Shown: piece by piece, positions 703 through 58,463 of the stretch
How positions within the stretch are numbered: the stretch's first letter is position 1
How the letters are laid out: every line of letters starts with the position of its first letter
Assembly: GCA_017623705.1 (NCBI GenBank)
Contig: JAGAOQ010000018.1
Coordinates: 949-64,948 of the forward strand
Direction of reading: 5' to 3'
Source of the DNA: Clostridia bacterium
GTDB taxonomy: Bacteria > Bacillota > Clostridia > Christensenellales > UBA1242
DNA: 64,000 nt
The notes under the pieces: generated by a model
Told to the model about the DNA's origin: nothing
Seen by the model: the letters and a program-made list of their open reading frames with translations, nothing else
Database searches by the model: none
Program-made: the position numbers and the translations under genes

Positions 703-2718
703 CTAATTTAGATTCACAATTTTATTGTAAATAGCACTTTTGCTCAATTCCGTCGTACGTTCATTGTGGATTGTTAAACGGTTACGCACGACTTCATAAA
801 TTCCCAGTTGTTGAAATACCGCAAAACAGAAGACAAACTGGAAGATGTTTTTCTTTGGTAACACGATTTTGCTAAATAATTTTAAGGGTGATTGACAAAA
901 ATTATTTTGATTTACCAAATTTAGCGTTGCTTTATAATAATCAATAAAAACCGACCTGTCAACACTTAACCCGCTAATAATGGCTTGCAAGCTTTGGTCA
1001 GGGGTAACCGCCAACTCATCATGTAAGTAACGTTGCAGTACCAAAGCTTTTTCATCATCGTTAATCGCAAACGGAATCACACACTTAACCACCGCTTGCG
1101 GAGCTGTGCCGTCATTTTGTTGCAATTCAAATATCACACTCTTGTTACAAGGCGACGCCAAAATTTCGTTAAAGACTGCCCCGCCGAAGAAAATAAACTT
1201 CAACTGCCCGTTGTCAAATTTAGTATGAATCGGGTGGCTTGGCAAACTCACAGCATGCGTTTGGCGTAAGACGGTCATCAAAACTGGTGCTGGATTACCA
1301 CAGCCCGTCGGTTCAAGCATGGCAACTTCTTGGAAAAATTGTTGGTTCAATTCTTCGGCACTAATTTCAAAATCATAGTACTTACAATTTTCCGTCGTTT
1401 GCGTTGCCAAAGTATCCGTAACAATTTGTTGGAACAACGTACGGAACTGCGTAAAGTTCGCCACTGGCAAAGACATACCCGCCGCCATGGCATGCCCACC
1501 AAAAGTTGATAAGTATTCCGCCGCTTTGGTAATACATTCCACTAAATGTACACCCACAATACTACGTCCGCTCCCTTTGTAGACTTCACCTTTACCACCT
1601 AACACAATACAAGGTCGCCCGTACTTTTCCGCCAGACGTACCGCAACAATACCTAACACACCGCTTTCCCATTCGGGTTTAGCCACCACAATCGCACTGT
1701 CATTTTGTAAGTTTTCCGCTTCAATCATTTTCACGCACTCGTTAAAAATTACCGTACACAATTCTTGACGTTTCGTGTTCAAGTACAATAAGTTCTTAAC
1801 AATTCGTTCTAAGCGAATTTCGTCTTGTTCCAAAATCACATCTAACCCACGTTTCGCATTTCCCATGCGTCCACTAGCGTTAATTTTCGGGCCTAAACGG
1901 AAACTAATATCACCACTCTTAATCTTGCCACGAATATTGCAAGCCCGTGCCAAAGCGGTAATCCCTGGCACAGTTCCAGCATTTAACATCTGCAAACCAT
2001 GATGCACGATGACACGATTTTCATCGGTTAAAGACACAATGTCTGCGACCGTGGCAATCGCACAAATGTCAAAGTACTGTTTCGCAACCGCTAAACCTTC
2101 CATTGCTTGCACCAGTTTCAAAGCCACACCTGCTCCGCACAAATCGTCAAACGGATAAGCTTGGTCCTTAAATTTCGGGTCAACACAAATACAGTTCGGT
2201 GTTTGTTCGGGAATCGCATGGTGGTCAGTAACAATACAGTCAATCCCTAACGATTGAGCATACTCAATTTCTGCGGGGCAAGAAATCCCGCAGTCCACCG
2301 TAATCAACAAGTCAGGGTGGAATTTTTCATTCAAGCGACCAACTAAGTCAATGTTCAAACCATAGCCATCGGCATCACGTTCGGGCAAAAAGTACGAAGT
2401 ACGAACCCGTTGTGTTAGTAAGTACTTATACAAAATGGCAGTGGCACAAATACCATCAGCATCATAATCGCCGATAATTAACACTCTTTGTTTACGGTCA
2501 ATAGCATTGTGCAACCTTTCCACCGCCTCCGGCATACCTTTCAATAAGAACGGGTCGTGTAGTTGTTCAGGGTCGAAGTTAAAAAACTTTTCAGCTTTTT
2601 CCCGAGTGTCAATACCTCTTTCAATTAACAAACGGATAAACTTTTCACTATACCCTAGTTGGTTGAACTCCGCCAGTTGCCGAGGGGTTACTTCCCCGCA
2701 CCTGACTTTATATTCCAT
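703..2718 (-). CDS. recJ: Single-stranded-DNA-specific exonuclease RecJ (DHH/DHHA1 family)
   Basis: 671-aa ORF with DHH-family motifs IIGDYDADGICATA, ITVDCGIS and VTDHHAIP, and a GGHAMAAG DHHA1 motif. Confidence 0.9.
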   Translation of the reverse strand: MEYKVRCGEVTPRQLAEFNQLGYSEKFIRLLIERGIDTREKAEKFFNFDPEQLHDPFLLKGMPEAVERLHNAIDRKQRVLIIGDYDADGICATAILYKYLLTQRVRTSYFLPERDADGYGLNIDLVGRLNEKFHPDLLITVDCGISCPAEIEYAQSLGIDCIVTDHHAIPEQTPNCICVDPKFKDQAYPFDDLCGAGVALKLVQAMEGLAVAKQYFDICAIATVADIVSLTDENRVIVHHGLQMLNAGTVPGITALARACNIRGKIKSGDISFRLGPKINASGRMGNAKRGLDVILEQDEIRLERIVKNLLYLNTKRQELCTVIFNECVKMIEAENLQNDSAIVVAKPEWESGVLGIVAVRLAEKYGRPCIVLGGKGEVYKGSGRSIVGVHLVECITKAAEYLSTFGGHAMAAGMSLPVANFTQFRTLFQQIVTDTLATQTTENCKYYDFEISAEELNQQFFQEVAMLEPTGCGNPAPVLMTVLRQTHAVSLPSHPIHTKFDNGQLKFIFFGGAVFNEILASPCNKSVIFELQQNDGTAPQAVVKCVIPFAINDDEKALVLQRYLHDELAVTPDQSLQAIISGLSVDRSVFIDYYKATLNLVNQNNFCQSPLKLFSKIVLPKKNIFQFVFCFAVFQQLGIYEVVRNRLTIHNERTTELSKSAIYNKIVNLN

Positions 2719-26887: not shown

Positions 26888-26916
26888 ATTATAAGATGCC
26901 CCCACCGCAAAGTCAA
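26888..26916 (-). promoter_or_regulatory. Consensus sigma-70-type promoter for paralogues 3 and 2 (predicted leaderless)
   Basis: On the minus strand: TTGACT (26916-26911), N17, TATAAT (26893-26888), N6, ATG 26881. Confidence 0.65.
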
Positions 26917-26950
26917 TACAGCCAACCAAAAATTTTCAACAATTTTTTCC

Positions 26951-28870: not shown

Positions 28871-28929
28871 TTGTTTTTCTCCTTTTTCGCATAATTCCAC
28901 AGTTAGTATGTGGAACTACTACTAAACGT

Positions 28930-43999: not shown

Positions 44000-44007
44000 T
44001 AGTTTTA

Positions 44008-44016
44008 TGATATACT
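44008..44016 (+). promoter_or_regulatory. Extended -10 element for the pseudouridine synthase gene (predicted leaderless)
   Basis: TGaTATACT (44008-44016), N8, ATG 44025. No SD. Confidence 0.45.
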
Positions 44017-44024
44017 TTTTTTAG

Positions 44025-44735
44025 ATGAGAGTAAACAAATATCTTGCGTTATGTGGACTAGGCAGTCGCCGTCATGTCGAAACCTTGGTTACGGCAGGTC
44101 GTGTACGGCTCAACGGTGTCGTCATTACCGACTTAGCAACCTTAATTCCCGACGATGCGACCGTTACCGTGGACAATCGTCCTGTTAAACCGATTGCGGA
44201 CAAAGTCTACATTTTATTAAACAAACCTGCTGGCGTAGTCTCCACGACTTACGACCCACAAGGTCGACCAACCGTACTGGATGTGTTACACAACAATCCG
44301 AAACAATACGCAACTTTATTAAAGTCGGTACGTTTATACCCGATTGGTCGTTTAGACTATCACACTTGTGGTTTAATTTTACTTACCAACGACGGAGCTT
44401 TAACCAAACAACTAACGCACCCGTCCACACACGTAGATAAACTGTACCATGCAACCGTCAACCGCCCTGTTACCAAAAGTGAATTAGAAACATTGTCCCA
44501 AGGTGTCAAGATTGACGGTGTAATGACAGCACCAGCATCATTTGCTTACATTAAGCACGACCGTATGCAAATTCAAGTAGTGATTCACGAAGGGCGTAAC
44601 CGCCAAATTCGTAAAATGTTTGAAACGCTAGGCATTAAAGTTACCCACTTAATCCGCTTACAAGAAGGCAAGTTAAGTTTAGGCAACCTTGCAACGGGTG
44701 ATTGGAAGTTTGTCCGCAAAAGTCAAATTATTTAG
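44025..44735 (+). CDS. rluB: RsuA/RluB-family pseudouridine synthase with an S4 domain
   Basis: MRVNKYLALCGLGSRRHVETLV (S4 domain) and the GRLDYHTCGLILLTNDG catalytic motif. Confidence 0.85.
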   Translation: MRVNKYLALCGLGSRRHVETLVTAGRVRLNGVVITDLATLIPDDATVTVDNRPVKPIADKVYILLNKPAGVVSTTYDPQGRPTVLDVLHNNPKQYATLLKSVRLYPIGRLDYHTCGLILLTNDGALTKQLTHPSTHVDKLYHATVNRPVTKSELETLSQGVKIDGVMTAPASFAYIKHDRMQIQVVIHEGRNRQIRKMFETLGIKVTHLIRLQEGKLSLGNLATGDWKFVRKSQII

Positions 44736-47226
44736 TCCCAAAGATAACTTGACGGAACATTTCCACGGGCAACATCGACAGAGCCAAGACGCCAGCAAAT
44801 AGCACATAACCCCAGTCGACGGGAACAGTTCTAAACACGCCACCGCCGAACGCAATAATGAAAAATTGAGAACAAATAATTGCTACCATAATAATTACGA
44901 AAGCTTTATTTTTGAACAAGCCACGTAACAAATTCAAACCATTAGCTCGGGCATTAAAAGCATTACAAACATTAAGGAACATAAAGAAAGTAAAGAACAC
45001 GGTAACAAAAACTTGTTGGTTGCCGACAATTTTTTGAATGTAAGGCGAAAGCAAGAACCACATGCAAATCAAACTGCCAAAGACACTACCCCAGATAATT
45101 TTGCCCCACATCGACGACGTAATTAAACTTTCATCACGCCGTTTCGGTGGTTGCTTCATATAAACGGGAGCTGGTTTTTCACCACCGAAAGCTAACCCCG
45201 CCAGCGTATCCATCACCAAGTTAATCCACAACATTTGAATCACGGTAATCGGTGCTGCTATCCCGAACAACGGAGCCAAAATACAAATCACCATAGCAAT
45301 AAAGTTAATGGTTAGTTTGAAGACTAAAAACTTACGGATACTTTCAAACAAGGTTCGTCCAAAAGATACCGCTTTGGTAATGGATTGAATGTTGTCGTCC
45401 ATAATGACAATGTCGCCCGCTGCTTTGGCAACTTCTGTCCCGCTCCCCATCGCAAACCCTAACTCGGCTCGTTTCAAAGCGGGGGCATCGTTAACGCCAT
45501 CGCCCGTCATACCCACCACCAAGTTCAAACTTTGAGCAACACGTACCAAACGACTTTTATCTTGTGGATAAGCCCGTGCCACTACTTGCAAACGTGGTAA
45601 CATCTGTGCCAAGGTTTTGTCGTCCAAGCGGTTTAATTCTTCGCTGGTCAACACTAAACCGTTGTCGTCCAAAATACCAACTTCACGTGCCACCGCCACC
45701 GCCGTATCACGTGCATCTCCTGTTACCAAAACAACTTGAATTTGTGCGGTATGTAACGTGGCAATACTGGGTCGTGCTTCGGGGCGTACCGCATCTCGAA
45801 TCACGACAAACCCCAACAAGACATCGCCTTGGGCAACGCAAATCACTCGCATCGCTTGTTGACTTAACGCATTGACTTTTTGCAATAAACGTTTGCGTTG
45901 CAAATTATCCAGCTGACAACGGGGTAACAAAACTTCGGTTGCTCCCTTGTAATACGTATCGCCTTGTGCCGTTGTCGTCGCCATATACTTTGTGGCCGAA
46001 GAAAATGGTTCGACATTTTGTTTACTAATCTTTGGCAAAGCACCACCCAACAATTCGCTGCCGAAACCAGCTAACACACGGTCGGTAATGTTACCACCAA
46101 TGAAACCTTGTGCCGTCGATTCGGCTTCGTTGTTCACAACTAACGCCGTACCGAGTAATTGTCCAAAACCACCTAACTGCGAAACAAAGTCTTGTGTTAC
46201 ATATTGCCCGTTCGGCAATAAAACGCCACACACAGTCAATTTACCTTGCGTAATTGTTCCCGTCTTATCCGTAAACAAAATGTTCAAACTGCCTGCTGTT
46301 TCTACCGCACTCAATTTCCGCACCAACAGGTGGTCCCGCATCATGGCTCGCATATTTGAAGACAGCACAACGGTAATCATCATCGGCAAGCCATCTGGCA
46401 CAGCCATAACTACAACCGAAACGACCAAGGTTATCGCTGCTAAAATTTCTTGAAAAGTAATGCCACCACCACTCACGCTAATTAAAAAAGTTATGGCGGC
46501 AATCGCTGCCCCAATGTAACCAATCGCCGAAACTAAATTGGCTAATTTGGAGAGTTTAACTTTTAACGGACTGGTTGGTGCGGATTCGGTTAACCCCTGA
46601 GCAATTTTACCGTAAGCTGTTTGGTCGCCCACCGCTGTAACTCGCATCACACCACTGCCACCAGTAACCACCGTCCCCGAAAACAACTGCCCCGCCGACA
46701 AGAAATCAACTTTGCTTTCGCCCGTGCTTTGCGTTACATGTTTGTGGCATTCCAAACTTTCGCCGTTCAAAATACTTTGGTCAACACTTAACGTGCCATC
46801 AACCATGATACCATCGGCAGGAATTTTGTCCCCACTACCCAGCAAGACTAAATCACCAACCACAATTTGTGTGGCGGGGAGCAAAACTGTTTTCTCACTT
46901 CTTTTTACCCGTGATTGTATTTGCCCCGACATCGTTTCCAATTTCTTAAAAGCGGACTCACTGCCTAATTCGCTTAACGTACTAACCATGACGGCAATGC
47001 AAATGGAAACGACAATCCCAAAAGTTTCTAAAAAGTTATGGGTATAAAATAAACATGCCAAATTGATACCCGTAACAATCATCAAAATCTTCATGATTGG
47101 ATCGCCCAAGTTACCAACAAAAATTTGCCAAAAGCTACGCTTCCGTGGTGGCGTTAATGTATTACTACCGAACTGTTTACGAGCTTTTTCAACATCTTGC
47201 GGATTCAAACCATGAAACTCTTGCAT
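44728..47226 (-). CDS. P-type ATPase, type II (Ca2+-ATPase/YloB-like)
   Basis: DKTGTITQG phosphorylation site, TGDARDTA, MTGDGVNDAPAL, and an N-terminal cation-ATPase-N segment HGLNPQDVEKARKQFGSN. Confidence 0.9.
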   Translation of the reverse strand: MQEFHGLNPQDVEKARKQFGSNTLTPPRKRSFWQIFVGNLGDPIMKILMIVTGINLACLFYTHNFLETFGIVVSICIAVMVSTLSELGSESAFKKLETMSGQIQSRVKRSEKTVLLPATQIVVGDLVLLGSGDKIPADGIMVDGTLSVDQSILNGESLECHKHVTQSTGESKVDFLSAGQLFSGTVVTGGSGVMRVTAVGDQTAYGKIAQGLTESAPTSPLKVKLSKLANLVSAIGYIGAAIAAITFLISVSGGGITFQEILAAITLVVSVVVMAVPDGLPMMITVVLSSNMRAMMRDHLLVRKLSAVETAGSLNILFTDKTGTITQGKLTVCGVLLPNGQYVTQDFVSQLGGFGQLLGTALVVNNEAESTAQGFIGGNITDRVLAGFGSELLGGALPKISKQNVEPFSSATKYMATTTAQGDTYYKGATEVLLPRCQLDNLQRKRLLQKVNALSQQAMRVICVAQGDVLLGFVVIRDAVRPEARPSIATLHTAQIQVVLVTGDARDTAVAVAREVGILDDNGLVLTSEELNRLDDKTLAQMLPRLQVVARAYPQDKSRLVRVAQSLNLVVGMTGDGVNDAPALKRAELGFAMGSGTEVAKAAGDIVIMDDNIQSITKAVSFGRTLFESIRKFLVFKLTINFIAMVICILAPLFGIAAPITVIQMLWINLVMDTLAGLAFGGEKPAPVYMKQPPKRRDESLITSSMWGKIIWGSVFGSLICMWFLLSPYIQKIVGNQQVFVTVFFTFFMFLNVCNAFNARANGLNLLRGLFKNKAFVIIMVAIICSQFFIIAFGGGVFRTVPVDWGYVLFAGVLALSMLPVEMFRQVIFGTK

Positions 47227-47264
47227 GCTCTATATATATAGGGTCGCAAGGTAAAATTTGCTTG

Positions 47265-49886
47265 TTATTCAAAGACTTGACGAATATCATTGCTGGTTTC
47301 GATACGAATCGTCGAACGAGCCACAGGTCCGTACATAAAGAAGCATTGCCCACGTGGTGCAGCGACAATCGTTTCTTGTTCACGTTTATTGATACCACCA
47401 GCATTTTTATACAAAGTTACCAAGTCGGTCATATCGTTAGGAGCTAACGAGAAGATTAAACTATATTGCGAAGCGTTAATAATCGCAGCCGACTTTTTAG
47501 CAATCGCAGGCGAACCCACAAAGTCTTTAATATTTTGGGTAATAACGATTTGCATACCGTCATACTTACGGATACGTTTTGCCATTTGGAACATGAAGTC
47601 CAAAGCAATCGGGCGTTGTTCATCAATGAAAACGTGAGCTTCATCGACAACGACAATAATTTTACGTTTGGTATGGTATTTAGTATTGAAATCACGGTTC
47701 TTAATAACTTCCCCTTCCAAGTACTTAAACACCAACAACATTTGAGCATTAGCAACCAACTCGTTTTTGTTTGACAACAAAGTTAAGAAGTTAAACACGA
47801 AGAAATTTTCTTCGGTACGAATTGTATTTGGACCGTTCCACAAACCAGAGTAACGTCCGCCTTCCGCAAACTTTTCCAAATAGGTCGTCAATACACGGTA
47901 GTTGATACGTGAGAATTCATCTTTGGCTTGTGCGTAACTACGTTTAGCCAATTCATATAATTCGTCGAAAATCGGGAACTGTTCCGGCTTAACTTTGGCG
48001 AAGTCAGTGTATTTGTCAATCCCCTTCATACTATACAGACGGTTAACCAAACTATTCAAAGCTTCCAAAGCATCACTGCGGATACCTTCCATAACAATTT
48101 TGAAGAAACTTTCCAAGAAACGTAAATGCCCTTCAAAGGTATCATCGTATTCTTCGCCCGTGTCATCATCTTCTTCCAACATGTTAGGATAAATATGGAA
48201 CGGGTTAAAGCGACCATGCCCCGCATTACCCACGTCAATCATACCACCATGCAATTTCTTTGCCATGGTTGAATATTCTTTTTCAGGGTCGCAAATATAA
48301 ATTCGAGCATTATCCGCTGCCAAGTTGGTCAAAATTGATTTCGTCGCAAAGGATTTACCACCACCAGATTTACCGATGATAATCATGTTACTGTTAACAC
48401 GAACATCATTACGTTGGAAGAAATCCACAAAAACAGGGTTACTGTTGCTACCCAGCATAATTCCCTTTTCGTCCATTAACAAGTCGGAAACAAATGGGAA
48501 GCAAGCACCTAACGTACTGGTAACCATACCACGTTCAATCGCATCATATTTATCCAACTTAGAAACATTTGCCGATACAAAAGCGTCAATTTGCTTACCC
48601 GAGTTATTGCTAAATTTGAAACCTTCTTCGGTAATCGTATGACGTAATTCGGACGCCGTCTTCGTATCCGTCGTAATGTGAATCTTGACGTTGAACATTT
48701 GTTCGTTACCCGTCTTTAATTGTTGTAACATTTGTTCGATGGTTTGCAATTGGCTTTGCTTTTCCATCTTTTGACTTTCCTTACCTTTGTGTTCTTGCGA
48801 ACGCATTTCGATAATCGCACGGTCAATCAATTTTTCAGATTCAGCTTTTGGCATCTGTGTAAAATTCATGACGGTACGACAATTAGGATAGTTAAAGAAA
48901 GTATACAACCATGCCGGCCCAACATTCATTGGATAATCGGTAATCGTCAATGTAGTCTTATCTTCGCCGTCCATATTGAAACGACTAACACCAAACTTAA
49001 TTTTGCCAGGGTGAGTCCACTCTGTACGTTTGTCAAACGGAGCGTGGTCAAAATCTTTTTCGTTAAAATATTTATTGTAGTTACCACGCAAGAAAACGTA
49101 TAAATCTTTACCGACCACACGACGAGCATGCAATGACGCACCTAACGCCGTAATAACACTGGACGTAGTGTTGTCAATCTCGTCTTTTTTCGACGAATAA
49201 ATTACTAAATAATAACCCGTACGATAAACCTTAGCTTCTTCATTCATGAATTCCAAAGTTTGTCCACGTGAATTGAACACGACTTCACGAGCTTCCAATT
49301 CTTCTTGCGAGAAAGTACCCCGCTCCACGTTACGAGTCAGTTGGTCATACTTTTCAATTTCGTTATCAATGTAATTATCGAAAAGCAAAGGTTTTTCAAA
49401 CGAAATTAAGCTTCCCGAATTGTGCGTACCAATACGACGCAAAGCATTAGCAAAGTTATTCATTAACATGGTTTGAGCTTCGGGTCCCAGCAAACCAAAT
49501 TCAACGGGCATAATTTCGATAACCGAAGCTACATAACTGCCGTAATCAATTAAATTGTCGTTAATGATACCATTATAAGGGACAATGCGTTGCATTTCCA
49601 CATAACCCTTTTCTAAAACTTTGGCGTACTTTTTTGGATAAGCAAGGAAACGGAAATACCAAATGAACGACTCATATTTACGGTCGCCCGCACTATCTTT
49701 CAACATACCGATGATAACTAGGAAAGCAAGAATCCCCCCTAGAATCATCAACGGTAATAAACCCGAAGCAAACAGTAACCCGACCGCACCAGCCCCAAGT
49801 ACCAACCAAATTAAGTCAGTGGACGTTAAGCCCTTGACGAAAATGGTCTTAATCTTGGTTTTCCGCGGGATAAAATAATCACCCAT
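47265..49886 (-). CDS. VirB4/TrsE/ConE-type T4SS ATPase with an N-terminal two-TM (VirB3/PrgI-like) module
   Basis: Walker A MIIIGKSGGGKSFATK (nt 48351-48386), then ICDPEKEY..RFNPFHIY, then Walker B IIVVVDEAHVF (about 47634-47663), then RIRKYDGMQIVITQNIKDF. The N-terminus GLTSTDLIWLVLGAGAVGLLF..LMILGGILAFLVIIG gives 2 TM segments. An AAGGGG SD lies 6 nt before the ATG. Confidence 0.85.
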   Translation of the reverse strand: MGDYFIPRKTKIKTIFVKGLTSTDLIWLVLGAGAVGLLFASGLLPLMILGGILAFLVIIGMLKDSAGDRKYESFIWYFRFLAYPKKYAKVLEKGYVEMQRIVPYNGIINDNLIDYGSYVASVIEIMPVEFGLLGPEAQTMLMNNFANALRRIGTHNSGSLISFEKPLLFDNYIDNEIEKYDQLTRNVERGTFSQEELEAREVVFNSRGQTLEFMNEEAKVYRTGYYLVIYSSKKDEIDNTTSSVITALGASLHARRVVGKDLYVFLRGNYNKYFNEKDFDHAPFDKRTEWTHPGKIKFGVSRFNMDGEDKTTLTITDYPMNVGPAWLYTFFNYPNCRTVMNFTQMPKAESEKLIDRAIIEMRSQEHKGKESQKMEKQSQLQTIEQMLQQLKTGNEQMFNVKIHITTDTKTASELRHTITEEGFKFSNNSGKQIDAFVSANVSKLDKYDAIERGMVTSTLGACFPFVSDLLMDEKGIMLGSNSNPVFVDFFQRNDVRVNSNMIIIGKSGGGKSFATKSILTNLAADNARIYICDPEKEYSTMAKKLHGGMIDVGNAGHGRFNPFHIYPNMLEEDDDTGEEYDDTFEGHLRFLESFFKIVMEGIRSDALEALNSLVNRLYSMKGIDKYTDFAKVKPEQFPIFDELYELAKRSYAQAKDEFSRINYRVLTTYLEKFAEGGRYSGLWNGPNTIRTEENFFVFNFLTLLSNKNELVANAQMLLVFKYLEGEVIKNRDFNTKYHTKRKIIVVVDEAHVFIDEQRPIALDFMFQMAKRIRKYDGMQIVITQNIKDFVGSPAIAKKSAAIINASQYSLIFSLAPNDMTDLVTLYKNAGGINKREQETIVAAPRGQCFFMYGPVARSTIRIETSNDIRQVFE

Positions 49887-49896
49887 GAATTACCCC

Positions 49897-52800
49897 TTAT
49901 TTAGCCCCTGGTAAATTTTTCAATTTTGCCATTTGTTCTTGTAATGAACCTTCTTGTGCTTTGATACCGTTGTTCAATTCATCCTGACGATCACTTAATT
50001 CGTTAGCTTCATTGGCACGGGCAATACCCAAAGTAAAGGTTTTGGCGATACCTAATTGTTCTTGATACGCTAGATCGTTAATGTGTGCATCACGGAATTT
50101 TTCAAATGCTTCAGTCACTTTTTTTACTTTTTCATTTTTCAAACTAGTACCAGAATTAACCGCAATCATCGTATCACGTAAAAGATTTGTAAAATCACTT
50201 TCGCTAGCAACACCTAATTGATTACGTAATTCTTTCCACATAGCACCCGAGAAGTTAGTTTCAATTTGCCCTAAGATTTGGTTAACTTCACTACGTGCTC
50301 TTGCTTCATTATGTGCAGCATCTTCCAATGCGGCATTGAACTTATTAATAATAATTTTTTTCTCGGCCAGTGAAGTTACTTGAGCAAACGCAGTTTCCAT
50401 ACCTAACATTGTATCACCACCCATAGCAGCACTCGTACTGCCCATGTGAGCTGCATCAAGCACACCTAAACCACGAATACCGTTCAAACGATCCGTATCG
50501 CCACGTTGTTCCCAGAAGCGTAATTTATCAATAGTATCCTGATCAACACCAAGAGATTTTGCTCCTTCGTAATCGTGTTGCATAACTTTATCAACAACTT
50601 GTTGTAAAACCAAACCAGCACCAGCATAATCACCTCTGTTGTGCATTTCTTGAATTTTACTATCATTAACAACAACTTGAACCGACATCGCATCCATTTT
50701 CGTACCAATATGGAATTCACGTTGATGTTGATACTCTGTCATCATTGACATAGTATCAATCGCATTCTTTGATTCGACGAATTTCTTTGAAACATCATGA
50801 CGGCGAATATCGTCAGCATAACGAGCTTCAAATTCTTTCAATTTAGCATCTAACATAGCTTTCATGCGTTTCTTTTCAGCATCAATCGCAGCTTGACACG
50901 CAGGATTGTCTAAACCACCTTTACCTTCGTAGCTTTCGATAATTGCATTGATTTTGAAACCAAGCGAGTTTTCGTTGGTTGAAGTATAATCTTCATCATT
51001 AACGTCAGCGACAATTTGTAAGATTGCTTGTTTGTCTTCGGCAGAAACGGAATCACCGATTTTACCTCTAAACATTTCATCACCTTTTTCGTACAATTTT
51101 GCCGCTTCCAATGCCGCTTTTAACGCATGCATATCATGACTATTTTGAACGAAAGCACTGTCAGTAGTTTGTGCCATGAAGATAGCTGCTGTTTTTTGTG
51201 CTTCTTTTTCGTCTACCCCAGCGGCATCAGCAATTTTACCAACAACACTTTCAAACGCAGTACCAGCTTCAACTTTTTCCAAGGTTTTGGCAATGGCTTT
51301 AACTGTTTTTTCATCACCCTCCTTACCCATTGCTTGTGCCATTGAGTATGCCATTGAGTTGATTGCATTTGTTTGTTTTTCGGTTGCCGCAGCAAGTTCA
51401 GTACCAATATTATCTGAACCACTTTGTGCTTTCAAGCGTAATTCGCTTTCCAATTTTTTCAAACGTTGTTTAATCTTTTCATCTTTGAAATCAACGCCGA
51501 GATCAAGATCCAATCCCGATAACCCTTTCAAACCACGAGCCAAGCCGTCAGCCAATTTATTATCACCACCTAACTCGTTATACAGATCTTGCTTTTCGTT
51601 TTCGTTCATGTTGAAAGTTTTAAGTTTTGCATCACGTCTTGCATCTTCAAAGGATTTACCTTCTGCCATGTATTTTTCTGTTAACAACCCTGTCAACTTA
51701 TCGTCCATCGCAAAATTATTTTTCTTTGCTTCAAACTCTTCTCTGATTAATTGTTTTTTTACTTCGTCGGCAATAACTTTATTACCTTTAACGGTATTTT
51801 CGCCCCCCATGGTTAAACCACTAGCCAAAGCTTCACGATATTTTTTCAACTCAGCTTCACGTGTGATTTCTTTATTAGCAAAGTCATTCATTGCTTTTTG
51901 ACGAGCAAGTGGATCACGCCAACGATTAAATTCACCCCACAAGGAATTCTTATCTTGGGTTTTGGTTCCGTCAATACCATATTTAGAACGGATTGCTTCA
52001 CCAATGGTTGACCCCTTACCAAACAATCGTTTACCGATTAATTGAGCACGAGCACCTGCTTTCGTATCCCCAATAGCACTCAAAACATTTTTTGCTCCTT
52101 GAATAGCCCTATTACTTTTAATAACGCCACTAACCGATTTTCTAAAATCAGGATTACTCAACAAATTAGTTTTTTCTGCATTAACACGTGCTGCGTACTG
52201 TTCCTTTGTTTCACCTTTTTGCTTGCCGCCAATATTACGTTTAGCTTGCATTTCAGCAGCTTTTACTTGACGGTCATACATTCTTGATTGACGTTTTGTT
52301 AAACCATCTTTACTACCCTTTGCAATGGCTGCATCAATTTTCTCTTGATTTTCTTTACGCTTTGATTCTTTGGCTTTTGCTTTATCTAGTTTTGCTTGTG
52401 CCCAACTACCAACTTTACCACCTCGTGCAGCCTTCTTTGCTAGGAAATCATCTCGCCAAGCTTTACTATCTTTTTTTAAGGCAGCGACACGGTCGCGTGC
52501 ATTACGTAAACCAGCACCGAAGCCGGCAGCTTTCTTGCCAGCGTTCTTTAAGCCCTTCATAATGCCGTTGTCCATTGACTTTTTAGCATCGCTCCAAACT
52601 GAACCAAGACTCTTGGCACTCATTTGACCCGCACCCAAAACTGTGCAAATTGTGTTGCGGATTTGTGGCAACATAGAAACAAACGCAACCAAACTCAACC
52701 AACTTAATATAGATCCTGACATACCGCCACCAGTAACTTCCTTTACGGCATCTTCAACCGGCTGCATTAAGACAATGAAGATATTAAGCGAAGCAATAAC

Positions 52801-55800
52801 GGCAAATGCACTGATTGCTTCCTTGTAGAACGGAGTAACAAATTGTGAGTTAAATTTAGAACCGTCGTCGAATGGATAGAAAGCGATTGTAACGGGACTC
52901 ATGACGTACAAGACAGCCATGTTAACAGCACGTTGAATTAAACCAAAGGCAAAGTTAAGGTAAACACCTAATGCCGCAATAATAGCAATATAACCGACAG
53001 CAAAGTTAATTTTTATAACATCGTATAATTTACGCACAACATCAGGATCAGAATAAGAGAATGTACCAATATAACTTTGTAAGTTTTTTCCATCTTCACC
53101 AATATTGACTGTATTTTTAGCGGTTAACATTAAATAGCGACGAACATCACCACCAGCAGCACTTGCCATCATGTCATCAATCTCATCAGCGGTAAAATTA
53201 TAAAGCATTTTAGCATTATAACTACCAGTCGGCTTCGCATTGGCGACATTTTTACACCAGTCTTTTAATACTTTTTTATCTTCACTTTGTTGACTTGTAG
53301 CTCGAAGATCACGGAAAGTAATAATATTTTTTTGGAACTCGGTCATCAATTCAGTATCAATTTCAGCATCAGTATCAGCCAACGCTTCAATTTCGCTTAA
53401 AGTACTTAATTTACCAGCGTTAACTAACGCATTGAGATTAGCCGATGATGTACGAACAGCAGATAAATCAACCGACGCAAGACTCAAAGCACTGGTTGTT
53501 GGACCGCTATGTTCAATAAAACCACTGTTAAGACTGTTACCTTTTGGCAATCCGTTTTGATATTCTTGGTAATAACGTGTATCACCCATTGTAACACCAC
53601 GAGAACCCCAATAAGAGCTATCACGGAAACTTTTATTAAATCCACCAGCACGTGTTTGTTTAATAAATGGGTTATTACTTTGGAAAGCCGTGTTAGAAAT
53701 AAAATAGTTCAAACCAACAGATTCCCAACTTTCATTTTGTTCATAATTCATGAATACCAAATCGTCCTGACTCTTATGTTTAATCATTGGCGTATTATCA
53801 TGAGATTCACTTTTTGGATCAATTGGGTTTGCACAATAAAAATCAATATAATCACCAAATACGTCCTTAATACCACCATTAGCATTTGTCATACCACAAT
53901 ATGCTGACCAGTCGATCAGGCGATATGCTTTATTGTCTTCGAAGAACATATTAACAGTAACTTTACCGTTATTATCGTCTTTGTTGAACATTGCGTTACG
54001 AACTTCGCTGGCAGACATCGACAAAGCACGATTTTCCGTCATATTCAATTCGATAATTGGTTGGTAAATTGATGGAACGATACGCAAATCGGCAAAATTA
54101 TTAGTTGGTCTGATTTCACTAAACAATGGACTAACTCCCACATAAGCACTCACTAAATTAGCAAAAGTACTGGTAATTGAAGATTCTAGTGTTTCCCAAG
54201 TACCTGGGAAACCTTTTGACGCCAATAAATCGTCAACTAAGCCAGTTCCAATACCTCCTTCATATCCTGTTTCAAAATCTGGATATTGGGTTAACAATGC
54301 TTCGTATAAATTCAAGTAGTTTCCCAATTTAGATAACATGCTGATCGCATTTTTATTATATAAATTAATTCTAGCATCATAATCCCGCCATTCTTTTTGG
54401 TCGGTAGTAATTTTATTGCTAAGTCCATTTAATTCTTCAACATCTGTTTCATAATTATCCCAAGACATACCGCTTGATTGCTCCATTTGGTTAATAAGAT
54501 CCTTAAAACTATCAGTTAATTGACTCCATAAGGTAATAAAATGGTTAGCAAATTGATACTTTTCAATCGTCAAATCCAAAAATTGTGCTCTATCATTAAC
54601 ACTAACCCAAATATCGCCGTTATGCGTTGACGGTCCAACGACGAAAGTTTCCGCTAATGGATTTCCATTTTCGTCCTTGGGGATAAGTCCAAGATTACCC
54701 ATAAAGGTTTCGTTCATGTTTTGGAAAATTTTCATAAGCAGTGGACCAAGTAATTGTAAATAATTAATGTCAACCGCAAATATATGTGTCGAAGCTGGAA
54801 TCATCGGGATCGCTTCAACTGCTTTTTGTGTTAAATTGGTATAAACTACGTTTGTTAAAATTGTCGACAAAAGACCAAGGAAAAGTTCTGGCTTAAAGGT
54901 GTCCAAAGAGAAGCTTGCCGACACTTCATCACCTTGTAAACCAACTTTTCCTTCAAAAGTAAATCCAAATTTTTTGGCACTATCTTCCAAAGATTTCTTA
55001 ACGGGTTCTCCCTTACTCTTGTAAGCAACGAAAGTAGTACCCATTGGGATCTTAGTACCAGACCCCATAACAGTCGTATCAATATCATGTGAAATATACT
55101 TAACTTGATCTAACGCATAAAAATAATCCACAATATCAACAGGCGACCACGCCAAATTGATACTTGGTTGAACATTAGTAGTAAACGCACTGAGAATATC
55201 ACTACGGAAACCGAATGAACCAGATACTTCACCATTTTCAATAAAATCATCTACATCTGTAATATCACCACTTGTTTGTTCAAACTCTATATAGTCTTCA
55301 AAGTCTTTTTTAGTTTCATCACCGAATTCAGCCCAACTATCGTTCCATCTTTCACCCCAACTACTATCATCGCTTTCTTCATCGGCTAAGATTTGTGCCC
55401 ATTGCGACAAAGGAGTAATTGAACCATCAGCATTAACTACGCCGTAATGTGATGATGGAAACAATTCATAATATTTATCACGCCATTCAGCAGCCGTTGT
55501 TGGCTTATTTTTATCCGTCATTTCAATCAAAACATATTTACCATCATCGGTATGATCACCAATCAAACGATAAATGTGCTGATTTCGCATATCTGCACCA
55601 AAAGCGTCTTCCTCTGTAACCAAACCTATTCGCTTACGGTTTGCGTCATAAGCCATTGCCTTAAAGACTGAACCCGCAATACTAGCTGTATTACCACTGC
55701 CAGTTGCAGCGTCCAACGCTCTGAACATGACTTGCGTCGTCTTCAAACCAACTGATACTGCTGCACTAACAAAAAAGAACATTAACAAACCTTTGAAAGT

Positions 55801-56154
55801 ACGGATAACAATTTTATACGGATTGCCACCATCTTTTTCTTTGTAATGTTCTTGAATAATTTTAATAATGGTAAAGAAAATAATTAGTGCCGTCGATAAA
55901 CCAATCAAGTTTTTGAAAATTGCATCAACGCTTTTATTCTGAATAATCAAGGTTATCATATCTTTACCCGATTCACCGATACCAGCCAAATTGCGGAAAA
56001 TACTTTCAACACCACTAACAATCCATGCCAACAATCGCCAAATCATATAAAGGAAACTTGGGAGCATTTCCAATACATTATCGATGATCATATAGATAAA
56101 GTTACCCAAACCTTCTACGAAAACATTTTCAAGCAACAGATTTCCCCAATTCAT
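49897..56154 (-). CDS. Giant polytopic membrane protein (2085 aa); a VirB6/ConG-like role is proposed only from topology and synteny
   Basis: Uninterrupted 6.26-kb ORF. Hydrophobic clusters lie at aa 15-145 and aa 1048-1175, with about 900 aa between them. The C-terminal 910 aa or so are K/A/E-rich. Lies 10 nt upstream of the VirB4-like gene. Confidence 0.8.
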   Translation of the reverse strand: MNWGNLLLENVFVEGLGNFIYMIIDNVLEMLPSFLYMIWRLLAWIVSGVESIFRNLAGIGESGKDMITLIIQNKSVDAIFKNLIGLSTALIIFFTIIKIIQEHYKEKDGGNPYKIVIRTFKGLLMFFFVSAAVSVGLKTTQVMFRALDAATGSGNTASIAGSVFKAMAYDANRKRIGLVTEEDAFGADMRNQHIYRLIGDHTDDGKYVLIEMTDKNKPTTAAEWRDKYYELFPSSHYGVVNADGSITPLSQWAQILADEESDDSSWGERWNDSWAEFGDETKKDFEDYIEFEQTSGDITDVDDFIENGEVSGSFGFRSDILSAFTTNVQPSINLAWSPVDIVDYFYALDQVKYISHDIDTTVMGSGTKIPMGTTFVAYKSKGEPVKKSLEDSAKKFGFTFEGKVGLQGDEVSASFSLDTFKPELFLGLLSTILTNVVYTNLTQKAVEAIPMIPASTHIFAVDINYLQLLGPLLMKIFQNMNETFMGNLGLIPKDENGNPLAETFVVGPSTHNGDIWVSVNDRAQFLDLTIEKYQFANHFITLWSQLTDSFKDLINQMEQSSGMSWDNYETDVEELNGLSNKITTDQKEWRDYDARINLYNKNAISMLSKLGNYLNLYEALLTQYPDFETGYEGGIGTGLVDDLLASKGFPGTWETLESSITSTFANLVSAYVGVSPLFSEIRPTNNFADLRIVPSIYQPIIELNMTENRALSMSASEVRNAMFNKDDNNGKVTVNMFFEDNKAYRLIDWSAYCGMTNANGGIKDVFGDYIDFYCANPIDPKSESHDNTPMIKHKSQDDLVFMNYEQNESWESVGLNYFISNTAFQSNNPFIKQTRAGGFNKSFRDSSYWGSRGVTMGDTRYYQEYQNGLPKGNSLNSGFIEHSGPTTSALSLASVDLSAVRTSSANLNALVNAGKLSTLSEIEALADTDAEIDTELMTEFQKNIITFRDLRATSQQSEDKKVLKDWCKNVANAKPTGSYNAKMLYNFTADEIDDMMASAAGGDVRRYLMLTAKNTVNIGEDGKNLQSYIGTFSYSDPDVVRKLYDVIKINFAVGYIAIIAALGVYLNFAFGLIQRAVNMAVLYVMSPVTIAFYPFDDGSKFNSQFVTPFYKEAISAFAVIASLNIFIVLMQPVEDAVKEVTGGGMSGSILSWLSLVAFVSMLPQIRNTICTVLGAGQMSAKSLGSVWSDAKKSMDNGIMKGLKNAGKKAAGFGAGLRNARDRVAALKKDSKAWRDDFLAKKAARGGKVGSWAQAKLDKAKAKESKRKENQEKIDAAIAKGSKDGLTKRQSRMYDRQVKAAEMQAKRNIGGKQKGETKEQYAARVNAEKTNLLSNPDFRKSVSGVIKSNRAIQGAKNVLSAIGDTKAGARAQLIGKRLFGKGSTIGEAIRSKYGIDGTKTQDKNSLWGEFNRWRDPLARQKAMNDFANKEITREAELKKYREALASGLTMGGENTVKGNKVIADEVKKQLIREEFEAKKNNFAMDDKLTGLLTEKYMAEGKSFEDARRDAKLKTFNMNENEKQDLYNELGGDNKLADGLARGLKGLSGLDLDLGVDFKDEKIKQRLKKLESELRLKAQSGSDNIGTELAAATEKQTNAINSMAYSMAQAMGKEGDEKTVKAIAKTLEKVEAGTAFESVVGKIADAAGVDEKEAQKTAAIFMAQTTDSAFVQNSHDMHALKAALEAAKLYEKGDEMFRGKIGDSVSAEDKQAILQIVADVNDEDYTSTNENSLGFKINAIIESYEGKGGLDNPACQAAIDAEKKRMKAMLDAKLKEFEARYADDIRRHDVSKKFVESKNAIDTMSMMTEYQHQREFHIGTKMDAMSVQVVVNDSKIQEMHNRGDYAGAGLVLQQVVDKVMQHDYEGAKSLGVDQDTIDKLRFWEQRGDTDRLNGIRGLGVLDAAHMGSTSAAMGGDTMLGMETAFAQVTSLAEKKIIINKFNAALEDAAHNEARARSEVNQILGQIETNFSGAMWKELRNQLGVASESDFTNLLRDTMIAVNSGTSLKNEKVKKVTEAFEKFRDAHINDLAYQEQLGIAKTFTLGIARANEANELSDRQDELNNGIKAQEGSLQEQMAKLKNLPGAK

Positions 56155-56204
56155 AGTTCCAGCTTAAACTATATCGTAAAAATCGCCAAACGCTTTTTCG
56201 GTTT

Positions 56205-57122
56205 TTAGACGTTAAATTTGAAATGGATAATGTCGCCGTCTTGTACCACGTAATCACGACCCTCTTGACGAACCCGACCGTGGTCTTTGGCGGACAGCAA
56301 ATTGCCGTATTTAACAAAGTCGTCGTAAGAAACAACTTCAGCTTTAATAAAACCACGCATGAAGTCGGTATGAATTTTACCCGCTGCGATTAAAGCAGTG
56401 TCGCCCTTTTTAATTGTCCAAGCACGGACTTCGGGTTCGCCAGCAGTTAAATAAGAAATCAAACCTAATAAATGGTAACCTGCCACGATGAGTTTATCTA
56501 AGCCACTTTGTTGTAAACCGTACATTTGCATAAACTCGGCACGTTCGCTTTCATTTTGCAAAGCTGCCAATTCATTTTCAACATGAGCACAAATACCAAT
56601 CACTTGGGCGTTATCCGCTTTCGCAATTTCCTTAATCTTCGCAAAGTGCGGATTGTTTGCTCCGTCGTCGGCAATGTCGCTTTCATTATAATTTGCCACA
56701 TAAATCACGGGCTTATCAATGCCAGCGTACATCAATTCTAATTTAATGGTGTCAATATCACTTTCGGGGTTTGCTCCACCATCAACATGCGTAACATTAG
56801 GGTCATCAAATGCTCGTACGACATGCACAATCGCATCGACTTCACGGATATGTGATAAAAATTTATTTCCCAAACCTTCGCCTTGTGAAGCACCTTTAAC
56901 CAAACCAGCAATATCAACAAACTTAACCGTTGAATTGATGACAGATTTTGCTTGATAATGTTTGGCTAAAAAATCAACACGGGGGTCAGGCACAGGCACA
57001 ATACCAATGTTCGGCTCAATCGTACAAAACGGATAGTTCGCGACTTCCGCCCCAGCACGAGTAATCGCATTAAATAAAGTACTTTTTCCTACATTAGGTA
57101 AACCAACAATTCCAATCTTCAT
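56205..57122 (-). CDS. ychF: Ribosome-binding ATPase YchF (short form lacking the helical insertion)
   Basis: [29 protein letters not shown] and a C-terminal TGS-like domain ending [11 protein letters not shown]. 305 aa. AAGGAG SD. Confidence 0.9.
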
Positions 57123-57140
57123 TTTTCCAACTCCTTTGTT

Positions 57141-57878
57141 TTAATCCCGACGACGACCAAAAATCATCATAAAATAGGACAAATATCTTAAAAAGTAAAT
57201 TAACGACATCGCAAAACTAACGACATAAGTATTCGCCGCTGCCCGTAAAACCTTATTCACACCACGTCGTTCTTGTTTCGTATCAATAATTTGCATAGCT
57301 TGCAACATGGCTTTACCACGGCGAGAAGCATCGAACTCGGTTGGCAAGGTAATCAAACTAACTACCGCACTCAAACCGTAAACAATACAGAAACCTAACA
57401 ACAACCATTTGACGTAGATTTCTGCTCCCATGCCCATGGTAAAGAAAGAAGCAACTAAACTAATAATAATCAATGGTGTTAGTAAACGACTGGAAAAATT
57501 ACTAAGGCGAATTACTAAATTACGGACACGCAATGGTAAATAGTTTTCTGCGTCTTGCATGGCATGTCCGCATTCATGAGCCGCAATCGCCATCGCAGAA
57601 ACCGATGAACTATGCAAAACTTTTGCCGTCAAACGAACTGCCTTCGCCGTCGGGTCATAATGGTCGCCTTCGCCGTCGCTCGCTTCTTCAACGTGAATAT
57701 CTAATTGGTTTTCGGTTGCAATGCGTTGCACCAAATCTTTGGCCGTAAGGTTGCTCCCGCTTTCCATGTGATGATAATGGTTAATTACCGTGGTAACTCG
57801 AATGGAAGCAATGATGGCAAATAACAAGACAGGCAACATTGCCAAACCCGAGAGAAAATAAATTAGTTCCCAAGTCAT
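57141..57878 (-). CDS. YugP-like membrane zinc metallopeptidase
   Basis: HECGHAMQD (HExxH) motif flanked by TM segments. 245 aa. Confidence 0.8.
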   Translation of the reverse strand: MTWELIYFLSGLAMLPVLLFAIIASIRVTTVINHYHHMESGSNLTAKDLVQRIATENQLDIHVEEASDGEGDHYDPTAKAVRLTAKVLHSSSVSAMAIAAHECGHAMQDAENYLPLRVRNLVIRLSNFSSRLLTPLIIISLVASFFTMGMGAEIYVKWLLLGFCIVYGLSAVVSLITLPTEFDASRRGKAMLQAMQIIDTKQERRGVNKVLRAAANTYVVSFAMSLIYFLRYLSYFMMIFGRRRD

Positions 57879-57891
57879 AATCTATTATGAA

Positions 57892-58461: not shown

Positions 58462-58463
58462 AT

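Follow-up and report, generated by a model that had tools for sequence, protein, structure and literature searches.

The stretch analysed here (the window) comprises 64,000 nucleotides (nt) of contig JAGAOQ010000018.1 from a Clostridia bacterium and carries, among housekeeping genes, two adjacent genes which code for a VirB6-like giant of 2085 amino acids (aa) and a VirB4-type ATPase of 873 aa. We consider it probable that this pair is fixed, vertically inherited and derived by reduction from a monoderm type IV secretion system (T4SS), similar to the systems of Mollicutes integrative and conjugative elements (ICEs) and related to the mating-pair formation (MPF) class MPF_FATA, and that it has kept the core of translocon and motor. 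We are highly confident about the identity of the pair and its domestication, and give the proposed mechanism a little less than an even chance. The term MPF_FATA-related refers to the affinity with a family model (NF045975). Both exact proteins are found in a rumen/gut metagenome-assembled genome (MAG) labelled 'Clostridia bacterium' (locus-tag prefix J6B20), where the giant is annotated as 'hypothetical protein J6B20_02675'.

The 873-aa protein as a VirB4-type ATPase

The sequence identifies the 873-aa protein as an ATPase of the VirB4 type that carries a membrane hairpin at its N-terminus. This assignment is made because the protein aligns over its full length (aa 10-872 with model positions 7-893) with NF045975 (VirB4_plasma, the Mbov_0397 family ICE element conjugal transfer ATPase) at 578.7 bits, exceeds the cut-off of the Pfam model P-loop_TraG (85.2 vs 25.8 bits) and matches the solved C-terminal domain of VirB4 (PDB 4AG5) in aa 471-864 with an E-value of 3.5e-50, while its matches to HerA, FtsK, defence and terminase proteins are short. 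Other VirB4-family models gave scores of 152 bits (Clostridioides CD1110 VirB4) and 113 bits (F-type TraC). Identity as a HerA/FtsK or defence NTPase was considered and rejected, as this would be based on short P-loop matches of 28-57 bits; the grouping with VirB4 that an earlier note on this DNA had proposed from the letters alone is thus retained.

The same note had described a VirB4/TrsE motif set in this reading frame, and every motif that it quoted could be located in the translation. Besides the Walker A motif GKSGGGKS and the Walker B motif VVVDEAH (Table 1), these are DPEKEY (aa 533-538), NPFHIY (aa 561-566) and RKYDGMQIVITQ (aa 773-784). The catalytic residues are invariant across 14 relatives with 46-89% sequence identity. 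The N-terminal module of two transmembrane (TM) segments, which had also been noticed, is seen as a hydrophobic hairpin that, by analogy, may be VirB3-like in position and topology.

The ATPase appears to belong to a sister clade of the NF045975 family, rather than to the family itself, because its score misses the equivalog cut-off (590) by 11 bits and because it shows 28-30% sequence identity to the plasmid-encoded members from Spiroplasma and Mesomycoplasma.

The giant as an extended VirB6-like protein

The giant is probably a VirB6-like polytopic protein, with a core that is split by a large loop and extended by a long tail. Two clusters of TM helices had been predicted earlier, and they were located by hydropathy at about aa 27-138 and 1052-1164. 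Across 37 giants, residue conservation reaches its maxima at these two clusters (0.6-0.8) and is 0.13-0.45 elsewhere. Three models match at TM cluster 2 (aa 1018-1175): NF045848 (MMCAP2_0566 conjugal transfer protein) with 79.1 bits and an E-value of 3.4e-22 (cut-off 90), NF045889 (Mbov_0396 ICE transmembrane protein) with 48.9 bits and an E-value of 6.2e-13 (cut-off 70), and Pfam TrbL_4 with 20.2 bits (cut-off 27). The former two represent CDS16 of mycoplasma ICEs, which is the presumed VirB6 of that system (PMC12857230).

The assignment gains from related genomes, which were sorted into four architectures, A to D, as described below. Hidden Markov models (HMMs) of each of the two TM clusters match the protein encoded directly upstream of the ATPase in groups A, B and C (dozens of loci). 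The short homologues from group C reach 105-135 bits with NF045848 and cover model positions 2-321/322; five of them score 66.8-103 bits with NF045889, three of the five clearly above 70. As the HMMs of both TM clusters match short homologues which themselves pass NF045848, the giant can be considered VirB6-like by transitivity. It would then be an extended, VirB6-like member of the CDS16 family of mycoplasma ICEs, an assignment made by profile homology only.

The distance between the two TM clusters differs strongly between the groups. It is mostly about 100 aa in group C (75-160, with a few cases of 260-440), 390-615 aa in group B and 740-863 aa in group A, to which the window belongs. The C-terminal tails of the homologues vary from 300 to 1200 aa. 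In the window, the loop (aa 141-1015) has a net charge of -51 and is enriched in S, T, N and aromatic residues. An AlphaFold 2 (AF2) model of aa 1-1200 has a predicted local distance difference test score (pLDDT) of 68 and a predicted template modelling score (pTM) of 0.42; the TM helices are modelled, the loop is of mixed alpha/beta type, and pLDDT reaches 70-92 within the loop at aa 550-870. The tail (aa 1176-2085) is modelled as all-alpha with a mean pLDDT of 78 and a pTM of 0.54.

Loop and tail are apparently orphan, lineage-specific domains, because the relatives of the loop are confined to the same family of giants: a phmmer search against 1.84 billion representative proteins retrieved 39 relatives, all of which are giants of this family or fragments of them. 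When loop and tail were compared by jackhmmer with all open reading frames (ORFs) from 90 loci, no link was found to the loops of group B or to the large proteins encoded next to the ATPase in groups C and D. A PDB sequence search with the giant returned spurious matches to alpha-repeat proteins only, and no internal repeats were found in it.

A chromosomal gene pair outside of mobile elements

Both ORFs are intact in all related loci that cover them and are thus real genes rather than chance ORFs. The arrangement described in the earlier note, with two uninterrupted minus-strand ORFs which are 10 nt apart and a Shine-Dalgarno sequence ahead of the second, is borne out by the ORF listing and the spacer sequence, and the same holds for the same-strand gaps of 50 nt to ychF on the upstream side and 38 nt to the gene for a Ca-type P-type ATPase on the downstream side. 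The Shine-Dalgarno sequence of the ATPase gene is G-rich and overlaps the stop codon of the giant which, together with the 10-nt spacer, fits translational coupling of the two genes. A scan for promoters and terminators performed no better than on shuffled sequence and gave no operon boundaries.

The pair is not an ICE in this window. This conclusion is drawn because integrase, relaxase, VirD4 and tRNA genes are absent from the 64 kb and att repeats from the 15 kb scanned, because synteny is conserved, and because the nonsynonymous divergence (dN) of the ATPase is like that of housekeeping genes (see below). No tRNA was reported by ARAGORN across the 64 kb, nor was an integrase, relaxase, transposase or VirD4 revealed when the window ORFs and identical contigs were annotated with Pfam and NCBIfam. 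Neither VirD4 nor pilins were found in the 64-kb window by tblastn or jackhmmer. Around the pair (44000-59000), no att-like direct repeats were detected, only short imperfect matches within genes. That tRNAs, direct repeats and recombinases are missing from the 64 kb had been stated before; this applies to tRNAs and recombinases for the complete window and to direct repeats for the 15 kb scanned. The annotation also agrees with the statement that a relaxase, a coupling protein and an integrase, as partners for conjugation, are not visible. A 671-aa ORF (703..2718) had to be rejected as VirD4 since it codes for RecJ.

By Pfam, the window and the identical contigs carry housekeeping and transport genes only. 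Among them are recJ, degV, ftsY, recA, a murF-like gene, tsaE/D, ABC transporters, uvrB, corA, recN and xseA, as well as cmk, two copies of surE, rsuA, glnS, hflX and ackA. A plasmid origin of the pair was rejected, the best VirB4 from a plasmid being TraE of Spiroplasma citri with 28% identity. A phage origin was rejected as well, with one match at 27% identity among 2.9 million viral contigs. PADLOC and PHROGs returned weak P-loop matches only, which disfavours an origin from a defence system or a phage.

Two other ORFs of the window deserve mention. A 269-aa ORF (61356-62165, plus strand) has a weak SleB-type match (Pfam Hydrolase_2, 22 vs 27 bits) and is the only wall-hydrolase-like candidate in the window; it is encoded opposite to the pair, about 5 kb upstream, and so weak a match does not allow it to be connected with the system. 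A 179-aa ORF (6860-7399, minus strand) is homologous (jackhmmer E-value 2.6e-33) to p214, a two-TM protein that borders group C clusters. It adjoins recA and the gene for a subtilisin-like peptidase. Being 40 kb from the pair and beside housekeeping genes, it is probably not part of the system.

Distribution and gene order in related genomes

Species representatives of GTDB were scanned with a family-specific pattern, and 80 loci were fetched and sorted into the four architectures. At least 459 GTDB species encode relatives of the ATPase. Of the 80 loci, nearly all come from rumen, gut and termite-gut MAGs that bear the labels of uncultured Clostridia, Christensenellales-like bacteria or Bacillota, and a few contigs are labelled Prevotella, Spirochaetales or Lachnospiraceae. 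Three group A or C loci from MAGs labelled Prevotella sp. or Spirochaetales (L004, JAMPCO010000017.1; L005, CAZXAV010000007.1; L080, JBFXFT010000009.1) are considered mis-binned Clostridia contigs, based on gene content and sequence identity (e.g. flanks with 88-94% identity to the window).

In group A, which includes the window, the ATPases are 81-92% identical and the gene order is glnS-SLOG-Zn peptidase-ychF-giant-ATPase-Ca-ATPase. The pair occupies one and the same site throughout the group A loci, and the giants (2002-2402 aa) are intact wherever the locus covers the gene completely. Group B, from termite-gut MAGs, has ATPases with 54-69% identity to that of the window, preceded by giants of 1470-1660 aa. 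The three group B loci that reach far enough (L085, L017, L018) have the same V-type ATPase (V-ATPase) operon and Ca-ATPase gene downstream. The synteny proposed for checking is thus seen as ychF-giant-ATPase-(V-ATPase operon)-Ca-ATPase in group A and as ATPase-V-ATPase operon-Ca-ATPase in group B. Conservation of this gene order reaches from genus-level to family-level relatives. That the downstream synteny is shared by both groups at an ATPase identity of 54-58% argues for long vertical inheritance.

The V-ATPase operon (subunits D, B, A, F, C, E, K, I) is encoded on the opposite strand, between the VirB4 and Ca-ATPase genes, in several loci of groups A and B (L006, 12667-20663; L008; L009; L010; L017; L018; L085, 13860-22476). 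It is missing from the corresponding junction in the window (47226-47265), and likewise from L003, L007, L023 and L091; no V-ATPase genes were seen anywhere in the 64 kb. The operon has either been lost or been relocated there.

Group C has more complete clusters, with ATPases that are 45-48% identical to that of the window. VirD4 (PF02534/TrwB/TraG-D_C) is encoded on the opposite strand, followed by 2-4 paralogous VirB2-like pilins (PF18895; NF045849, Mbov_0395 pilin-like), 1-2 unknown proteins, a VirB6-like protein of 700-1260 aa and the ATPase; then come a fast-evolving protein of 600-1600 aa and housekeeping genes. Relaxase and integrase domains were not detected within or beside these clusters. 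They are carried by many uncultured, Christensenellales-like species; examples are L086, L030, L038, L058, L060 and L068, with about 15 further loci. The clusters have a conserved position, beside mnmA or the FBA/GAPDH genes, the latter being neighbours also in group B. In group D, a lone ATPase gene is found among housekeeping genes (in L087, beside spoIIGA-sigE), without an adjacent gene for a VirB6-like protein but often followed by a gene whose product is surface-anchored and has 2400 to more than 3600 aa (L087, 12690-22676; L048; L074; L081).

In a neighbour-joining tree of the loci, which cluster by architecture, group A is nested in group B, and A plus B are sister to C plus D. No VirD4 was detected by jackhmmer in about 20 loci of groups A and B, with flanks of up to 10 kb, and pilin-like domains were detected there in two group B loci only. 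The simplest reading is that an ancestral chromosomal T4SS-like locus was reduced stepwise to VirB6 plus VirB4 in the lineage of the window, while the loop grew. The window pair is probably such a reduced derivative, because its sister lineages hold VirD4, pilin arrays, a shorter VirB6-like protein and VirB4. The earlier view of an 'orphan' module is therefore correct locally, for the window and group A, but does not extend to the sister group C, which carries all of these genes together.

Strain-level variability of the giant

Selection was assessed by comparing the window with a genus-level relative (L003) and with near-identical strains. For the former, dN alone was used because synonymous divergence (dS) is saturated (above 1) at this distance, which makes dN/dS unreliable; dN/dS was taken from the latter. 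The dN of the ATPase versus L003 is 0.044, within the range of its neighbours (ychF 0.029, glnS 0.057, Ca-ATPase 0.076), so that the ATPase is as constrained as core genes. Together with the conserved synteny, this agrees with the claim in the earlier note that the pair is fixed and under selection. The giant, with a dN of 0.45, evolves about 10 times faster than the ATPase, yet it is always kept, and each fully covered orthologue is an intact ORF. Clustering of proteins at 90% identity gives 29 members for the ATPase and 2 for the giant.

The giant gene is a hypervariable island that recombines at the strain level. In the near-identical strain L089, the proteins of the flanking genes are 98.8-100% identical (dS 0.04-0.14), but within codons 1 to about 1055 of the giant gene dS is 0.5-1.7 and dN is 0.12-0.45. 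Nucleotide identity drops from 97-100% to 50-85% between about 56250 and 52990 and then returns to 93-99%; the tail, with a dS of 0.106, is like the flanks. In a second, conspecific strain (L091, GCA_965319205.1), the flanks are 96-100% identical at the nt level over 6 kb upstream and 5.8 kb downstream, and the ATPase is 99% identical at the aa level, but the giant is 57% identical. Here the whole giant gene is affected (54-89% nt identity), with islands of higher identity at TM cluster 1 (0.86) and TM cluster 2 (0.89). The tail is 46-49% identical (aa) in genomes with a 99% identical ATPase, among them L091, and the loop has 50-85% nt identity to conspecific strains as compared to 97-100% in the flanks. 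The upstream edge of the island is ychF, where nt identity starts to drop at about 56250-56200; YchF itself is 95-100% identical (aa) among relatives.

There are at least two exchangeable modules in the giant, the N-terminal part plus the loop as one and the tail as another, and TM cluster 2 is a crossover point. As dS and dN increase in parallel, with a dN/dS of 0.2-0.4 in the variable parts, alleles have been replaced by homologous recombination rather than diversified by positive selection in situ. Such allele replacement is typical of exposed surface determinants. The hypervariability of the giant suggests a surface-contact device that is subject to an arms race.

Comparison with known systems

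By sequence family, the conjugation core of Mollicutes ICEs and plasmids seems to be closest to the window pair, which nevertheless falls outside of it in score, location and size. In the ICEs of Mycoplasma agalactiae and M. bovis, this core is CDS15-CDS16-CDS17, i.e. the pilin-like Mbov_0395, the VirB6-like Mbov_0396 and the VirB4/TraE protein Mbov_0397, with CDS5 as VirD4; Spiroplasma plasmids code for TraE. Both window proteins, as well as the pilin-like and VirB6-like proteins encoded in the sister clusters, score higher with the Mollicutes families than with any other curated family, and the gene order (VirB6-like, then VirB4) and the N-terminal TM module of VirB4 are shared. The Mollicutes gene set is minimal and lacks a recognisable VirB1 or VirB8 (PMC12857230), as does the system in the window. 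In contrast, the window pair is not on an ICE or plasmid and is not accompanied by VirD4, a pilin-like gene or a DDE transposase. Its host is apparently a walled member of the Clostridia, the aa identity to TraE from Spiroplasma and Mycoplasma is 28-30%, and the giant is about 7 times longer than its counterparts (2085 aa vs approximately 306-322). The pairing of VirB4 with a VirB6-like protein known from Gram-positive conjugation systems, which the earlier note had invoked, is thus present with the VirB6-like gene preceding virB4, but the nearest relatives are Mbov_0395/0396/0397 rather than Tn916, ICEBs1 or pCF10.

In concept, the chromosomal, relaxase-less and MPF_FATA-related T4SSs of the Patescibacteria are closest. 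For this group, also called Candidate Phyla Radiation (CPR), chromosomal T4SSs without relaxase and with pilin arrays have been described (Quinonero-Coronel et al. 2025, PMC12102498); relaxase-less T4SSs in CPR are also attributed to Wang et al. 2023, as far as that work is cited in PMC12857230. It has been proposed that these systems are repurposed for a host- or partner-dependent lifestyle (PMC12102498, PMC12857230). The window VirB4 is likewise chromosomal, vertically inherited and MPF_FATA-related, has no relaxase nearby and occurs in a large uncultured lineage, whose genome is compact according to the earlier note, and arrays of VirB2-like PF18895 pilins (2-4 paralogues) are found in the sister group C. 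The group C cluster closely parallels the Patescibacteria locus and appears to be undescribed, the window pair being further reduced. The differences are a different phylum (Bacillota, Clostridia) and, for the window and group A, the lack of neighbouring pilins and VirD4. VirB3-VirB4 fusions were not found in CPR (PMC12102498), whereas the window VirB4 has a fused VirB3-like hairpin and its VirB6 partner is giant and hypervariable.

Extended VirB6 proteins are known from other systems, such as the Rickettsiales, where the paralogue VirB6-4 of Anaplasma has 4322 aa (PMC7648143), and MPF_FA, with homologues of 700-900 aa. These share with the giant a hydrophobic core and large central or C-terminal hydrophilic extensions (PMC12857230), as well as their occurrence in reduced genomes with unusual T4SS gene sets. 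However, the extended VirB6 proteins of Rickettsiales, MPF_FA and F act within T4SSs that are otherwise complete and have VirB8-11 and VirD4. No sequence similarity of the loop or tail to known extended VirB6 proteins was found among the 1.84 billion representatives (phmmer, loop) or the 90 loci (jackhmmer). Polymorphism of TraG from the F plasmid and SXT sets partner or exclusion specificity, which is a precedent for allelic variation in extended VirB6 proteins. To our knowledge, strain-level replacement of cassettes of this size has not been described for them.

A further parallel is found in the archaeal Ced/Ted systems for DNA import, which are chromosomal, serve cell-to-cell DNA exchange, and combine the VirB4/HerA-like CedB and the polytopic CedA with pilins. 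Both Ced and the window pair are small chromosomal sets, with a VirB4-like ATPase and a polytopic membrane protein but no relaxase or VirD4. In contrast to the archaeal, pilin-using Ced, the window ATPase has but a marginal P-loop match to CedD (NF053655, 17.9 bits). In the searchable literature, we found no publication that joins Christensenell*, type IV secretion and VirB4.

Proposed mechanism and alternative explanations

VirB4 hexamers dock on an inner-membrane complex of VirB3, VirB6 and VirB8, in which VirB6 is the central platform or stalk that carries the pilus or channel; the role of the extra hydrophilic domains of extended VirB6 proteins is listed as unknown (PMC12857230), and T4SSs without VirD4 exist (Ptl, Brucella). 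We propose, tentatively, that in the window the VirB4-VirB6 core has been kept as an ATP-driven membrane device. A VirB4 hexamer would dock via its hairpin onto the TM core of the giant and would power assembly and/or translocation through that core. The variable loop would be displayed on the cell surface and might replace pilins and other partners in contact and in spanning the wall. This replacement is proposed because the loop grows from about 100 to about 400-600 and then to about 850 aa as VirD4 and pilin genes vanish from the vicinity. Hypervariability may reflect an arms race or partner specificity at the surface, with phage receptor function, host immunity or exclusion/mate recognition as possible causes.

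Several points weigh against this proposal. The correlation between loop growth and partner loss involves three lineages only, and other parts of the genome may code for VirD4, pilins and hydrolases, as components are dispersed in group D. The giant stays below the curated cut-offs of all VirB6-like models. Foldseek searches against the PDB with the models of aa 1-1200 and of the tail returned nothing with an E-value below 1, so that a VirB6/TrbL fold was not confirmed; the earlier suggestion that the giant is VirB6-like is supported by profile homology. Its membrane topology is ambiguous: with the seven predicted helices, loop and tail would share one side of the membrane, yet the strongly K/R-rich start of the tail suggests that the latter is cytoplasmic. 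As dN/dS in the variable parts is not above 1, allele exchange is indicated but positive selection is not demonstrated. Finally, the host appears to be walled, given its MurF-like gene, and the crossing of peptidoglycan by a two-protein device is not accounted for.

The alternative that survives best, although we consider it rather unlikely, is that the pair is the local part of a complete T4SS which is dispersed over the chromosome. VirD4, pilins, wall-spanning proteins and hydrolases would be encoded elsewhere, and the system would work like that of group C, by pilus-assisted contact and VirD4-dependent transfer of DNA or protein. This would be in line with the joint occurrence of VirD4, pilins, VirB6-like protein and VirB4 in the sister group C and with the two group B loci that retain pilin-domain proteins. 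Dispersal is already seen in group D, where VirB4 has been split from any VirB6-like gene and is surrounded by housekeeping genes, with large surface proteins and small TM proteins encoded close by, and in Patescibacteria only 148 of 5,713 homologues of VirD4-type coupling proteins are encoded near virB4 (PMC12102498). However, neither the 64-kb window nor the flanks of the group A and B loci hold VirD4, with pilin domains restricted to the two group B loci, and the steady growth of the VirB6 loop while partners vanish suggests replacement rather than relocation.

The far-reaching form of the proposed reduction, which we think unlikely, is a two-protein machine that has neither pilus nor VirD4. 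In such a machine the variable VirB6 would be platform and wall-spanning fibre at once, driven by VirB4 and central to a partner- or host-dependent lifestyle, and its exchangeable cassettes would set partner, phage or exclusion specificity. If this is true, the pair is the counterpart, in Bacillota, of the essential T4SS of Patescibacteria.

It is quite improbable that the giant is mainly a variable adhesin or an S-layer-like surface antigen and that VirB4 was co-opted to insert, extract or assemble it, with nothing being translocated to another cell. The TM core, which is the most conserved part of the giant and is VirB6-like, suggests that a channel or platform function has been retained, and a VirB4 that serves a single protein would be without precedent, although pilin dislocation driven by VirB4 provides an analogy for a role in adhesin assembly. 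Extreme strain-level variability is typical of exposed antigens and receptors, and the loop is an orphan domain, but Foldseek detected no adhesin fold when the model of aa 1-1200 was compared with the PDB. A recurrent association between the ATPase and large surface proteins is seen in groups C and D, where in nearly every case a fast-evolving protein of 600 to more than 3600 aa is encoded after the ATPase, and the large group D proteins examined have a signal peptide and a C-terminal anchor.

Two other alternatives are contradicted. Both genes come from conjugation-type families and their nearest curated models are ICE models, but a decaying remnant of an integrated conjugative element that is kept by chance disagrees with ORFs that are intact in every relative covering the genes, with an ATPase dN equal to that of housekeeping genes, with synteny down to 54-58% ATPase identity, and with the lack of an integrase or tRNA in the 64 kb, of an att site in the 15 kb, and of any close plasmid or viral relative. 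An ATPase of HerA/FtsK, defence NTPase or terminase type that is unrelated to secretion would be based on weak, P-loop-level matches (PADLOC mad8, 57 bits, and HerA, 35; PHROG terminase, 62; Pfam DUF87, 38), against a full-length alignment with a VirB4 model, the match to 4AG5, a VirB6-like partner upstream, and relatives clustered with VirD4 and T4SS pilins.

The existence of dedicated, non-conjugative T4SSs in Gram-positive bacteria is a long-standing question, for which the Patescibacteria represent a striking new case (PMC12857230). The loci described here would be a second large uncharacterised clade of chromosomal, vertically inherited and apparently relaxase-less T4SS-like loci, encoded by the species counted above and hosted by uncultured Clostridia of gut, rumen and termite gut. 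They form a natural reduction series, from VirD4 with pilin arrays to a bare VirB6-VirB4 pair, which could show what a minimal core is capable of. The hypervariability of the giant is a testable handle on the role of extended VirB6 domains, and the giant is likely a surface determinant in abundant gut bacteria, as a phage receptor, as an immune target or in mating/exclusion specificity.

Features of the locus and other observations

The features of the gene pair and its flanks are collected in Table 1. The downstream flank, a gene for a PMCA-type Ca2+ P-type ATPase, is syntenic across groups A and B. YchF is short, having 305 aa as compared to 368 model positions, and is matched in two stretches, so that an internal segment is missing. 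A bona fide GlnRS, which is unusual in Bacillota, is encoded at 58464-60026 on the minus strand (TIGR00440, 529 bits).

Table 1. Features of the VirB6-like/VirB4 gene pair and its flanks. Positions are those of the window.
Feature	Positions	Strand	Basis and remarks
ychF, upstream housekeeping flank	56205..57122	-	TIGR00092, 393.7 bits
Giant gene, putative extended VirB6-like membrane protein, 2085 aa	49897..56154	-	ORF listing; NCBI MBO5229674.1
TM cluster 1, aa 22-160, about 3 helices, predicted first conserved half of VirB6-like core	55675..56091	-	conservation 0.6-0.8; helices from AF2 and hydropathy
Central loop, aa 161-1004, acidic, S/T/N-rich, mixed alpha/beta orphan domain	53143..55674	-	putative ectodomain; strain-variable
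TM cluster 2, aa 1005-1197, about 4 helices, predicted second conserved half of VirB6-like core	52564..53142	-	conservation 0.5-0.8
C-terminal tail, aa 1198-2085, K/E/A-rich, all-helical, allelic between strains	49900..52563	-	AF2 model
Intergenic spacer, 10 nt	49887..49896	-	TAA-GGGGTAATTC-ATG
Gene for predicted VirB4-type T4SS ATPase, 873 aa, N-terminal two-TM hairpin fused	47265..49886	-	NCBI MBO5229673.1
N-terminal TM hairpin of the ATPase, about aa 25-63	49698..49814	-	sequence and hydropathy
Walker A motif GKSGGGKS, aa 505-512	48351..48374	-	translation; G505, K506, S507, G508, G510, K511, S512 invariant
Walker B motif VVVDEAH, aa 745-751	47634..47654	-	translation; D748, E749, A750, H751 invariant
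PMCA-type Ca2+ P-type ATPase gene, downstream housekeeping flank	44728..47226	-	TIGR01517, 531 bits (cut-off 507)

A second very large ORF (32730-37145, minus strand, 1471 aa) is located directly upstream of uvrB. It has a low GC content, a signal-like N-terminal helix and a C-terminal TM anchor, and it has no match in Pfam, NCBIfam, PADLOC or PHROG. In a group D locus (L088), a topologically similar protein of 1138 aa is encoded upstream of uvrB together with small TM proteins; sequence similarity between the two was not detected.

The stretch with the lowest GC content of the window (0.356-0.39) carries, at 23985-28900 on the minus strand, three tandem paralogues (314, 306 and 339 aa) with about 30% mutual identity and no family matches and, adjoining them, a gene for a 649-aa protein with a signal peptide. 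Finally, two adjacent SurE-family genes (42432-43999, minus strand; 256 and 266 aa) represent a duplication that is kept in the group A relatives.

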